Part shown: in pieces, positions 48,528-64,000 of the stretch
How positions within the stretch are numbered: the first letter of the stretch is position 1
Layout: every line of letters starts with the position of its first letter
DNA from: Promethearchaeota archaeon
GTDB lineage: Archaea > Asgardarchaeota > Lokiarchaeia > Sigyniarchaeales > SOKP01
Assembly: GCA_016839585.1 (NCBI GenBank)
Contig: JAEOTZ010000014.1
Location: forward strand, 1-64,000
DNA length: 64,000 nucleotides
Reading direction: 5' to 3'
Made by a program: the position numbers and the translations under genes
Notes under the pieces: model-generated
Seen by the model: the letters and a program-made list of their open reading frames with translations, nothing else
What the model was told of the DNA's origin: nothing
The model's database searches: none

Positions 48528-48631
48528 TGGCGCAGACAGAGGGATTTGAACCCTCGAGTGCAAAGCACACTGGCTTTATGGTATAACAATCCTCTCCAAG
48601 CCAGCGCCGTACCAGGCTTGGCTATGTCTGC
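48528..48631 (-). tRNA. tRNA-Ser(GGA), 18-nt intron at 37/38 (48576..48593), CCA encoded
   Basis: GCAGACA/TGTCTGC acceptor, G73, CTGGC/GCCAG anticodon stem, long variable arm, GAGGG-TTCAAAT-CCCTC; BHB-like junction. Confidence 0.92.
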
Positions 48632-57015: not shown

Positions 57016-57171
57016 TGGACTCGGGGGGATTTGAACCCCCGATTTCCTGTGTCTTCTACAAAAAGTAGAAAAAATTCAGGCTTTTACTTGAACGGACATT
57101 TCTTAGAATTTCTTGTTTGTCCGTCGGTCATTTATAAGACCTGCGCTTTAACCAAACTAAGCAACGAGTCC
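57016..57171 (-). tRNA. tRNA-Ile(UAU) with two introns: 50 nt in the anticodon loop (about 57082..57131) and 31 nt in the variable loop at 45/46 (57044..57074)
   Basis: GGACTCG/CGAGTCC acceptor plus A73, GCTT/AAGC D stem, CAGGT/GCCTG stem, loop CT-TAT-AA (anticodon 57134..57136), GGGGG-TTCAAAT-CCCCC; removing both introns leaves a canonical 75-nt cloverleaf. Confidence 0.85.
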
Positions 57172-58360: not shown

Positions 58361-59725
58361 TTATTGTTTTATTTGATTGTAAGCTTTTACAAATCTCTCA
58401 ACAGCTAATTCGATATCTCTCGTAGTTGCACCAATGGCAGCATTCATAACAATATAAGGAGTTGTATAATTTTCACAACATGTTCCAAACGCTGTTTCTT
58501 TTGTATTGTAGACTCTTGGACCAGTTACCCGCAAATTGTATAAAGCACCTCCAAGGTTATATAGTTGTTCTTCTTCTAAGTTTTTTAAAGATAATGCTAC
58601 TGCTATTGGATTATAAATATCAAGAATTCTTTCATTAATTTTTTCTGCTACTACTTTTAGTTTTTTTTCTAATATTTTACGATTCTGCTGTTGTTCTTCA
58701 ATTAATTCTTGATATCCATTGATTCCTAATGAAAGAATTGAAATTAAAAAGTTAACAACTGGAGTGGCTGATGCACGTCCAGCATAAGCTTGACTAATTT
58801 TAATTATAATTTCTTTGCTAGGTGATGCTATTATTGCACCTCCAACTGGTGTTAGAAAGTTTTTGTCAGTTGATTGAATTATCGCATCTACTCTACCAGC
58901 ATCTATAGCAGCTCTAATTAGTTTCATCCATTCAGGACTTTGAGCCCCATATGCATTTATAATAATATGTACTAGGTTATTTTCTTGCGCAAATTTACTA
59001 ATTTCTTTGATATCATCAGATTCTCTAGGAGGAAAAAAACTGGTAGTTGAAACAATAGCAAAGCAATCATTATCTAGATTAGATTTAATATCTTCAACAG
59101 GTATTCTCACAGCATCTCTAAAAATTTTTCCTTTAACGATTTTTGCCCAAAAACCCATTAATTCAATTGATTTTAATAATGATTTATGATCAATTTGTGG
59201 CAGCAACACCTTTCTCTTATGAAGTAGTTTAGAATCATCCCAATCTGGTCTTAATGCTCCTAAACATAAAGATAAAGACATTCCAGTACATAAAGGCACT
59301 ACAATTGCTTCTTTTATATTTGGCAATCCAATATTTTTCAATAAATTTCGCGCTAAATAATTGGTAATTTCATACATTATTGATCCTCCAGGTGCTTTAG
59401 GTTGTGGAGCTGTTAAAAATCCACTTCTACCTACACCATGACAAAATCCAGCCGAAGTTTTCAAATGAAGTTTTGACGCAATTCTAGCCTCTCTTTCACC
59501 TACCCTAGCAGCGTTATCATCCTTGTCTGTATCCATGTTTGAAAGTGTTTCAAGTAAGAATTCTATTTGTTCATCCCTCCACGGTTCTTTTGGAACACTT
59601 TTCTGTTCAAATAAGTTCTTTATTGGTTTTAAGAAATTATTTAATACAACCTGTCCTCGATTCAGCATATTTTGAGGAATAGATGAACTTTTAAAATATT
59701 TAATAATCTCGTGAAAATTTACCAT
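58361..59725 (-). CDS. spcS: O-phosphoseryl-tRNA(Sec) selenium transferase (SepSecS); start corrected to ATG at 59725
   Basis: GEREAR, HGVGRSG...QPKA.G.S, TGM, DHKS, NAYG, RVD..IQSTDKNF..PVGG, Y.GRAS; the ORF-track extension overlaps tRNA-Sec. Confidence 0.95.
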   Translation of the reverse strand: MVNFHEIIKYFKSSSIPQNMLNRGQVVLNNFLKPIKNLFEQKSVPKEPWRDEQIEFLLETLSNMDTDKDDNAARVGEREARIASKLHLKTSAGFCHGVGRSGFLTAPQPKAPGGSIMYEITNYLARNLLKNIGLPNIKEAIVVPLCTGMSLSLCLGALRPDWDDSKLLHKRKVLLPQIDHKSLLKSIELMGFWAKIVKGKIFRDAVRIPVEDIKSNLDNDCFAIVSTTSFFPPRESDDIKEISKFAQENNLVHIIINAYGAQSPEWMKLIRAAIDAGRVDAIIQSTDKNFLTPVGGAIIASPSKEIIIKISQAYAGRASATPVVNFLISILSLGINGYQELIEEQQQNRKILEKKLKVVAEKINERILDIYNPIAVALSLKNLEEEQLYNLGGALYNLRVTGPRVYNTKETAFGTCCENYTTPYIVMNAAIGATTRDIELAVERFVKAYNQIKQ

Positions 59726-59751
59726 AAAATTCACATCAAAAATTTTAAAAA

Positions 59752-59903
59752 TGGCGGCCCCCAGGGGGATATTCTTAAAAAGAGTAAATCTCTTTTTATA
59801 TCGAACCCCTATCCCTCCGCAGGATAACTGGGTTTGAAGCCCAGCGTCAAAGACCACTTATCGTCGAGGATCGGAATGACCACCAATTCGACCGCTAGGG
59901 GCC
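59752..59903 (-). tRNA. selC: tRNA-Sec(UCA), 9/4 fold, with two introns (29 nt in the D stem 59858..59886; 30 nt in the T loop 59770..59799), CCA encoded
   Basis: 9-bp acceptor GGCCCCTAG/CTGGGGGCC, G73, 4-bp T stem, 6-bp anticodon stem with loop CT-TCA-AA (59835..59837), long variable arm; spliced D arm GTCGAAG-TGGT-CTTTGAC; 93-nt product. Confidence 0.92.
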
Positions 59904-62993: not shown

Positions 62994-64000
62994 ATGGAGA
63001 TTGAAAAGAAAATCCCTGTCCATATCGGATTATTTGGTCATATTGACTGTGGCAAAACTGCAATAGCCGAGGTATTAAGTGAGATAATTTCAACCGCTGG
63101 TATCGATGCTCATCCACAAAGTAAAGAAAGAGGAATTACAATTGATTTAGGATTCACTAGTTTTGTCCTTGATAAATATTTAATCACATTAGTAGACAGT
63201 CCTGGTCATGCTGATTTAATAAAGATTAGTGCCTCATCAGTGGAAATTATCGATTACGCTCTAGTGATTATTGATATAAATAAAGGTCCTCAAGTCCAAA
63301 CTGGTGAGCATTTAGTTATAATTCAATCACTCAAAATTGAAAAAATTCTTGTTGTTCTTAATAAAATAGATCTTTTTACTGGAAATGTTAAAGATGAAAT
63401 TGAAAAAACAAGGAGATTTTTCAATTCTACATCATTTGGTTCAGATATCCCCATTTATGCCGTTTCTGCAAGAAGTAAGAGTGGATTTGAAGATTTAAAA
63501 TTGGGAATCTTAGAAATGATTAGCTCATTAGAAATCAAGAGAACCATTGATGGCAGTATTGTTATTCCAATTGATCATCATTTTCCAATCAAAGGAATGG
63601 GAGCAATTTTAACAGGTACAATTATGAGAGGGATAATAAAATTGAATGATAATCTAGAAATTTTGCCAATAAAATCTTCAGGAAGGGTTAAAAGTATTCA
63701 GATTTTTCATCAAAACGTTAATTCTGCAAAAGCTGGTGATCGTATCGGGATTAATATAAAAGGATTAGATGTTAGAAAAGTATTTAGGGGTTGTTATGCT
63801 ACTAATAATCCAGAATTATTCGATTTTTGTGATACTATTGAAGTAACTGTAAATAATAATGAATTATTCAAACCTAAAACTGGATTTGGTACTCAAATCC
63901 ACATCACAATTGGAATGGTAACTGTTGTTGGAAATATTTATCCCTTTTATGAGAGAGAAGGAAAAAGAATTCAAATTGCTATTTCAAATAATGAAGCAGA
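62994..64000 (+). CDS. selB: Selenocysteine-specific elongation factor SelB/eEFSec, partial (runs off window end)
   Basis: Hand translation: GHIDCGKT, STAGIDAHPQSKERGITIDLGF, LVDSPGHADLI, QTGEH, NKID, IDHHFPIKG.G..LTG; not in ORF track. Confidence 0.9.
   Translation, partial: MEIEKKIPVHIGLFGHIDCGKTAIAEVLSEIISTAGIDAHPQSKERGITIDLGFTSFVLDKYLITLVDSPGHADLIKISASSVEIIDYALVIIDINKGPQVQTGEHLVIIQSLKIEKILVVLNKIDLFTGNVKDEIEKTRRFFNSTSFGSDIPIYAVSARSKSGFEDLKLGILEMISSLEIKRTIDGSIVIPIDHHFPIKGMGAILTGTIMRGIIKLNDNLEILPIKSSGRVKSIQIFHQNVNSAKAGDRIGINIKGLDVRKVFRGCYATNNPELFDFCDTIEVTVNNNELFKPKTGFGTQIHITIGMVTVVGNIYPFYEREGKRIQIAISNNEA

Follow-up and report, generated by a model that had tools for sequence, protein, structure and literature searches.

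A tRNA-Sec(UCA) gene of a Lokiarchaeia (Promethearchaeota) genome is interrupted by two introns, one in the D stem and the other in the T loop. The locus, at 59903..59752 of the window (the whole 64,000-nt stretch of DNA analysed here), is confirmed as such a gene, and we consider it very probable that it is functional, apparently single-copy, and freed of its two BHB introns to give the active tRNA. Cleavage and ligation are both predicted to occur and to be required. The features of the gene are as follows.

59752..59903, minus strand: complete tRNA-Sec(UCA) gene, 3 exons and 2 introns, with discriminator G and encoded CCA
59887..59903, minus strand: exon 1, 17 nt; acceptor 5′ strand (9 nt), linker (2 nt) and nucleotides 1–6 of the D-stem 5′ strand
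59858..59886, minus strand: intron 1, 29 nt; in the D-stem 5′ strand at the border of nucleotides 6 and 7 (15/16)
59800..59857, minus strand: exon 2, 58 nt; last nucleotide of the D-stem 5′ strand, D loop, D-stem 3′ strand, anticodon arm, variable arm, T-stem 5′ strand and, at its end, T-loop nucleotides 54–59
59837..59835, minus strand: anticodon UCA, in exon 2
59770..59799, minus strand: intron 2, 30 nt; T-loop position 59/60
59752..59769, minus strand: exon 3, 18 nt; T-loop nucleotide 60, T-stem 3′ strand, acceptor 3′ strand, G73 and CCA
59754..59752, minus strand: encoded CCA of the tRNA-Sec gene

When both introns (29 and 30 nt) were removed, the resulting 93-nt RNA was called as tRNA-SeC(tca) by ARAGORN, with an acceptor of 9 bp and a T stem of 4 bp (the 9/4 fold), an anticodon stem of 6 bp, a 7-nt anticodon loop containing UCA, a long variable arm, a G73 discriminator and an encoded CCA. 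The D stem of this product has 7 bp (GUCGAAG/CUUUGAC, one pair being G-U) and a 4-nt loop, UGGU; according to both ARAGORN and ViennaRNA, it exists only once intron 1 has been removed. The minimum-energy fold of the spliced RNA calculated with ViennaRNA was exactly the same cloverleaf (−48.2 kcal/mol). An earlier interpretation made from the letters alone (hereafter, the sequence-only reading) had proposed a UCA tRNA-Sec that needs two excisions to reach its 9/4 fold, and only the doubly spliced product was indeed called by ARAGORN, no tRNA being called in the unspliced sequence or in either singly spliced version. The archaeal-type 7-bp D stem with a UGGU loop that it had described was likewise returned by ARAGORN, and this type of D stem is a documented feature (PMC5330540, PMC9499178). 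A 3′ CCA following G73 is encoded in the window and in every family orthologue read (e.g. L013, L010 and L084); the CCA of archaeal tRNA-Sec is said not to be encoded (2022 review, PMC9499178).

The positions of the introns can be read from close relatives. In a DNA search of 40 relatives, each of the 24 congeners sampled was seen to contain the middle exon, at 95–98% identity. In the intron-less congeners, the similarity started no more than 1 base from the intron-1 border and stopped at the intron-2 border (query 46–104), and their loci contain an uninterrupted 93-nt gene that reads ..GGTCGGA|GTGGTC.. and ..TTCGAT|TCCCC.. through the predicted junctions. Because these orthologues are colinear across both predicted junctions, the intron boundaries, which are those of the sequence-only reading, are supported. 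It had recommended a comparison of the locus upstream of SepSecS across Asgard genomes; in the relatives compared here, intron-less orthologues place the same junctions, and the spliced product and the orthologues agree with its claim that removal of intron 2 restores the T loop UUCGAUU. Most of the congeners read are intron-less and others carry a D-arm insert only or both inserts; in a neighbouring family, intron-less tRNA-Sec was found in four genomes. The lineage of the SepSecS-linked loci is taken as Lokiarchaeia because their NCBI titles read “Promethearchaeota archaeon” or “Promethearchaeia archaeon” (e.g. Loki_b31 and the AMARA, TEKIR and ABR isolates).

A census was then compiled for the window's family, in which the window DNA query matched 124 of 135 genomes. 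The loci were aligned, by an algorithm that tolerates long gaps, to a reference gene without introns, and 122 complete gene copies, comprising 97 unique sequences, were obtained. No intron was present in 57 of the 122 copies; introns were located in both the D arm and the T loop in 34, in the D arm only in 16, in the anticodon loop (canonical position 37/38) and the T loop in 11, and in the T loop only in 4. The intron-1 site was occupied in 50 of the 122 copies. When cut at the sites given by the BHB rule, all 62 unique intron-bearing genes were called as tRNA-SeC(tca) by ARAGORN.

Several further arrangements were observed in the family. The genes with anticodon-loop and T-loop introns form a subclade (L084, L098, L105, L109, L118–L120, L128–L130 and L143) that has no D intron, and their anticodon-loop introns (37/38) are 22–28 nt long, with a CUUC/GAAG helix and the 6-bp anticodon stem as the outer helix. 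A second D-arm intron position, 14/15, one nucleotide upstream of the other, is used in L015, L022, L024, L025, L048 and L099, with the motif GGUU AG|A ... AACC AC|A and sequences unrelated to those of the other D introns; this position reflects either independent gain or intron sliding. The complete genome “bin108” contains a second tRNA-Sec copy with a D intron, followed by the first 87 codons only of SepSecS, a partial duplication of the locus (L208, CP070831.1 777429–778889, and L099). Genome G012 has two tRNA-Sec copies (L023 and L096), both at contig ends. Finally, a contig deposited as “Chlamydiae bacterium SM23_39” (L171, LJUH01000039.1) carries a Lokiarchaeia-type tRNA-Sec with D and T introns and a SepSecS 78% identical to that of the window, and is probably a mis-binned Asgard contig.

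Splice sites were assigned by a BHB rule in which each strand has a 4-nt helix followed by a 3-nt bulge that is cut after its second nucleotide. These sites coincide with the junctions set independently by the intron-less orthologues. In the central helix of intron 1, exon GUCG (59892..59889) faces intron CGAU (59863..59860) with 4 of 4 pairs, one of them G-U, and the bulges are AA|U (59888..59886) and AA|G (59859..59857). The outer exon helix is only 2 bp long (G-U, C-G), and the inner helix is irregular, with 1 bp in the strict register and 4 bp if the 5′ bulge is taken as 2 nt. In the central helix of intron 2, exon UUCG (59805..59802) faces intron AGAA (59775..59772) with 3 of 4 pairs and one G-A mismatch; the bulges are AU|A and UA|U, the inner stem has 9 bp (59798..59790 with 59784..59776), and the 4-bp T stem serves as the outer helix. 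Both motifs, each exactly as the sequence-only reading had described it (29 nt with GUCG/CGAU, AA|U and AA|G; 30 nt at 59/60 with a 9-bp inner stem and UUCG/AGAA containing one mismatch), fall in the relaxed BHB class. Intron 1 has an HBh′-like relaxed motif, characterized by the 2-bp outer helix, the irregular inner helix and a competing fold.

The competing fold was apparent in the ViennaRNA minimum-energy structure of the precursor, in which the acceptor, anticodon, variable and T stems and the intron-2 hairpin were recovered, neither 4-bp central helix was recovered, and a 5-bp GUCGA/UCGAC helix was preferred in intron 1. A BHB-constrained precursor fold was less stable than this structure by 6.7 kcal/mol. 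Since the precursor fold misses the central helices and puts a competing helix in intron 1, we preferred comparative evidence over folding energy. The comparative signal appears strong for both BHB motifs despite their relaxed form. A full 4-bp central helix was present at the D-arm introns of 46 of 48 unique genes (4.5% for other same-length placements) and at all 11 anticodon-loop introns (3.9% for other same-length placements); at the T-loop introns it was complete in 23 of 48 and had 3 of 4 pairs in the other 25 (3.3% for other placements). The helix of the D introns also co-varies, GTCG:CGAT being the common combination and exon GTTG being matched by intron CAAT in three unique genes. The intron 3′ ends complementary to the exon are conserved, and the remaining insert sequence varies freely. 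Among 69 unique mature sequences, compensatory change was found among the variable pairs of all five stems, for example in D-stem pairs 16:25 and 17:24 (A-U to G-C) and in T-stem pairs 67:79 and 68:78, the two sides of which lie in different exons. As judged from these alignments, the mature tRNA-Sec fold is under selection. The agreement of the predicted introns with BHB elements and with the intron-less orthologues is far beyond chance.

The gene is not visible to the two standard tRNA searches applied, ARAGORN and Rfam. ARAGORN reported 0 tRNA genes in the raw 64,000-nt window, and no match to tRNA-Sec was obtained in the window at the Rfam gathering score. With relaxed thresholds, the Rfam tRNA-Sec model RF01852 gave the unspliced locus 34.6 bits against a cut-off of 47, over 59756–59872, in an alignment that tolerated a 31-nt T-loop insertion and misaligned the 5′ half. 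On the same model, intron-less orthologues (91% identical to the spliced window sequence) scored 62.1 bits and a D-only gene 37.9 bits, and T-only, D-plus-T and anticodon-loop-plus-T genes gave no match at E ≤ 0.01. Because the scores fall from 62.1 bits to 37.9 bits or no match, the inserts hide the tRNA-Sec gene from finders, and this is a failure of detection, not an absence of the gene. The expectation that standard finders would miss it was thus correct for both ARAGORN (0 genes) and Rfam (34.6 bits versus 47).

Other tRNA genes of this genome show similar features. Two in the window, at 57016–57171 and 48531–48631 (both minus strand; 156 and 101 nt), pass the Rfam tRNA threshold and are missed by ARAGORN; since their spans are long and they are Rfam-positive and ARAGORN-negative, they are taken to carry introns. 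In the whole genome (G000; assembly 99% complete), the general Rfam tRNA model detected 24 tRNA genes at E ≤ 1e-4, over half of the matches spanning 84–156 nt, and many of its tRNA genes are probably hidden by multiple introns.

The tRNA-Sec gene is the first of a small Sec gene cluster that continues with SepSecS and Sel_Asgard; SelB is located about 3 kb off.

58361..59725, minus strand: SepSecS (O-phosphoseryl-tRNA(Sec) selenium transferase); PF05889, 6e-116; TIGR03531, 489 bits
57548..58243, minus strand: putative selenocysteine system protein Sel_Asgard (NF045535); 222 bits versus a cut-off of 132
62994..63998, plus strand: SelB; TIGR00475, 245 bits versus a cut-off of 242; GTP_EFTU domains

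The SepSecS start codon is located 26 nt past the CCA of tRNA-Sec, and SelB lies about 3 kb upstream of tRNA-Sec on the opposite strand. Linkage of tRNA-Sec and SepSecS is kept in most family members. The juxtaposition is not universal in the genus, because in L020, L027, L030, L031 and L033 an intron-less tRNA-Sec is placed after the end of a coding region and not directly upstream of the SepSecS start. The genome also carries PSTK and two tandem genes for selenophosphate synthetase, selD (G000:C5:26616–28714; L213 and L214), each with one in-frame TGA.

With regard to splicing, the genome encodes an RtcB ligase (561 bits) and two EndA paralogues of 201 and 200 aa, which are 31% identical over a 118-residue local alignment. 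One of them, from the 77426–77650 region of contig C2, is similar to chain 3p1z_B of the Aeropyrum pernix splicing endonuclease (7e-36); the other is encoded in the 1832–2080 region of contig C39. The sequences suggest that EndA is an (αβ)2 enzyme; cutting of non-canonical introns is reported for two-subunit (αβ)2 endonucleases (PMC5829648, PMC4090602). No second tRNA-Sec candidate was detected in the 99%-complete assembly by RF01852 and DNA searches. Two tRNAs, each scoring 37.9 bits on RF01852 and thus above the 34.6 bits of the window gene, were rejected as a second tRNA-Sec: one is a tRNA-Gly(UCC), and the other is an intron-bearing tRNA with the anticodon GUG (His). Given that the assembly contains no other tRNA-Sec candidate and that its selD genes have in-frame TGA codons, we reasonably infer that Sec decoding depends on double splicing of the sole tRNA-Sec gene found.

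We propose the following route from precursor to active tRNA. The first four D-stem nucleotides (GUCG) of the precursor would pair with intron CGAU, a mimic of their mature partner UGAC, and T-loop nucleotides U54–G57 would pair with AGAA of intron 2. Each exon/intron pairing would present two 3-nt bulges, and the splicing endonuclease would cut all four bulges after the second bulge nucleotide. RtcB would then join the exons in two ligations, allowing the D stem to re-pair into its mature 7-bp form and the T loop to return to UUCGAUU. The 9/4 fold would arise only after splicing, and the tRNA would then be a substrate for SerRS, PSTK, SepSecS and SelB. Exact searches of metagenome_contigs with the spliced D junction and the spliced T junction, each with lineage-specific flanks, gave 0 matches, and no junction-spanning sequence was present in the public metagenome or transcript assemblies searched; these zeros are uninformative because mature tRNAs are rarely assembled.

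Intron 1 might be spliced in a register different from that proposed, although we regard this as very unlikely. Short repeats recur at its borders (AA at each of the two splice sites, and two copies of GGUC), and removal of the segment bounded by the repeated UGGU/GGUC would leave U instead of G at the junction and produce a D stem of 6 bp that closes a 6-nt loop. Another possible register follows the GUCGA/UCGAC helix, which the minimum-energy fold of the precursor contains in place of GUCG/CGAU. However, the intron-less orthologues all have G at this point and a 7-bp D stem, and the products of the alternative registers are colinear with no orthologue. Furthermore, the competing helix is confined to the small clade of the window, whereas the GUCG/CGAU register is conserved, with compensatory change, in 46 of the 48 unique D-intron genes. 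Retention of the inserts, either in a tRNA that functions with an enlarged D arm and T loop or as tolerated expansion segments, seems less likely still. Although Sun et al. 2021 called such features only “unusual insertions” (PMC9723677), both inserts lie exactly in BHB motifs whose exon-complementary 3′ ends are conserved while the rest is free to vary, and close relatives lack precisely these inserts. Moreover, the conserved tRNA-Sec fold can accommodate neither 29 extra nucleotides separating D-stem pairs 6 and 7 nor a T loop of 37 nt, and EndA and RtcB are both present in the genome.

Least likely of all is that the locus is a decaying pseudogene, with Sec decoding performed by another copy or lost. 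The blindness of ARAGORN to the gene and its Rfam score below the cut-off would fit such decay, but the spliced product retains all of its stem pairs, and three sister genomes keep the same architecture as the window gene at 97–99% identity. The Sec machinery and the TGA-containing selD genes are also intact, and the genome yielded no other tRNA-Sec candidate that could substitute. Our preferred reading remains a functional tRNA-Sec gene spliced at both BHB motifs.

The distribution of the introns was compared with a SepSecS tree built from 48 loci at which tRNA-Sec and SepSecS are both present. On this tree, the minimum number of changes was 11 for D-intron presence and 10 for T-intron presence, the anticodon-loop intron required 1, and very close pairs differed in their introns (e.g. 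L177, D plus T, versus L189, D only). The clade of the window (four rows) is nested beside an intron-less congener whose acceptor stem is GGCCCUUGA (SH-aLRT 98%). Its acceptor haplotype (GGCCCC...), T stem and recognisably related introns are, however, common to a distant clade, to which its mature tRNA is 96% identical, versus 86–91% to congeners outside the clade of the window; for SepSecS, the identities are about 75% and 77–82%, respectively. This discordance between tRNA-Sec and SepSecS was observed by comparing window positions 58361–59903 with L042–L046 and with L174/L176/L179/L180. The pattern suggests that entire tRNA-Sec alleles were exchanged or converted, or that a polymorphism has persisted for a long time; the tRNA is too short for a decisive test. 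We put forward only tentatively, as a possibility we rate on the doubtful side, that intron-bearing and intron-less tRNA-Sec alleles have been exchanged between Lokiarchaeia lineages independently of SepSecS and were not simply inherited vertically. Recombination or gene conversion involving the entire tRNA gene, introns included, may have been the route. Similarity of the upstream 70 nt was tried as a test of promoter co-transfer and was uninformative, because identity was 54–76% everywhere in an AT-rich background.

tRNA-Sec is the linchpin of UGA recoding, and a genome in which finders miss it would be wrongly scored as Sec-negative. Since ARAGORN and Rfam both miss the present gene, surveys of selenium use in Asgard archaea need intron-aware searches. 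In this organism, tRNA splicing is apparently a prerequisite for Sec decoding, and the only tRNA-Sec gene found would require two cuts and two ligations. The polymorphism within the genus (no intron, D, T, D plus T, and anticodon loop plus T) offers a handy natural system for studying intron gain, loss and exchange. The window gene extends a published case that has one intron and is in keeping with the known abundance of introns in Asgard tRNAs; no principle is changed. As an addition to published Asgard tRNA biology it is modest, because a T-loop intron (2016), a three-intron Atabeyarchaeia tRNA-SeC (2024) and Asgard D-arm introns were already known.

A 31-nt T-loop intron was described in a Lokiarchaeota tRNA-Sec by Mariotti et al. 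2016 (PMC4989117), as the sequence-only reading had correctly stated, and two later publications refer to this gene as the sole tRNA-Sec with an intron in archaea (Santesmasses et al. 2017, PMC5330540; 2022 review, PMC9499178). The further statement of that reading, that a D-stem intron is not known to have been reported for tRNA-Sec, agrees with our literature search, in which no paper describing one was found. Sun et al. 2021 mentioned “unusual insertions and deletions” in some Lokiarchaeia tRNAsec, in a text from which the word “intron” is absent (PMC9723677). D-arm introns occur commonly in Asgard tRNAs, where annotation software often overlooks them (preprint, bioRxiv 10.64898/2026.10.13.758758), and position 59/60 is a known site of non-canonical introns (PMC4090602).

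The Loki's Castle Lokiarchaeota tRNA-Sec resembles that of the window in its 9/4 fold, 7-bp D stem, 4-nt D loop and G73, and also in its T-loop intron of about 30 nt and the presence of SelB on the same contig. It has one intron, whereas the window gene adds a second, in the D stem; in addition, the window gene immediately precedes SepSecS and is about 3 kb from SelB, a distance that is about 6 kb in Loki's Castle. The tRNA-SeC(UCA) genes of Atabeyarchaeia-1 and -2 are, like the window gene, Asgard genes with several introns. According to Supplementary Data 4 of Valentin-Alvarado et al. 2024 (PMC11291895), these genes have three curated introns, versus two in the window gene, belong to a different Asgard class, and were called by Secmarker only, with low scores of 46.6 and 36.3, tRNAscan-SE making no call; in the rows consulted, the intron-coordinate columns are empty, without positions or BHB structures. 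The Daphnia pulex tRNA-Sec also contains an intron, but it is eukaryotic, has a single canonical 37/38 intron and is present in two gene copies (PMC5330540). Multi-intron tRNAs of Thermoproteales, such as Pyrobaculum islandicum tRNA-Pro(UGG), whose introns lie at 25/26, 37/38 and 56/57 (PMC4090602), and the Asgard D-arm cases resemble the window gene in three respects: their introns, of the BHB or relaxed HBh′ form, occupy non-canonical positions (59/60 among them), one gene can hold several introns, and the hosts have a two-subunit endonuclease, as predicted for the host of the window gene. These cases concern elongator tRNAs for the 20 standard amino acids, whereas the host gene in the window is a tRNA-Sec, for which one gene was found, and it is the unusually long D stem itself that provides the central helix of the BHB motif.
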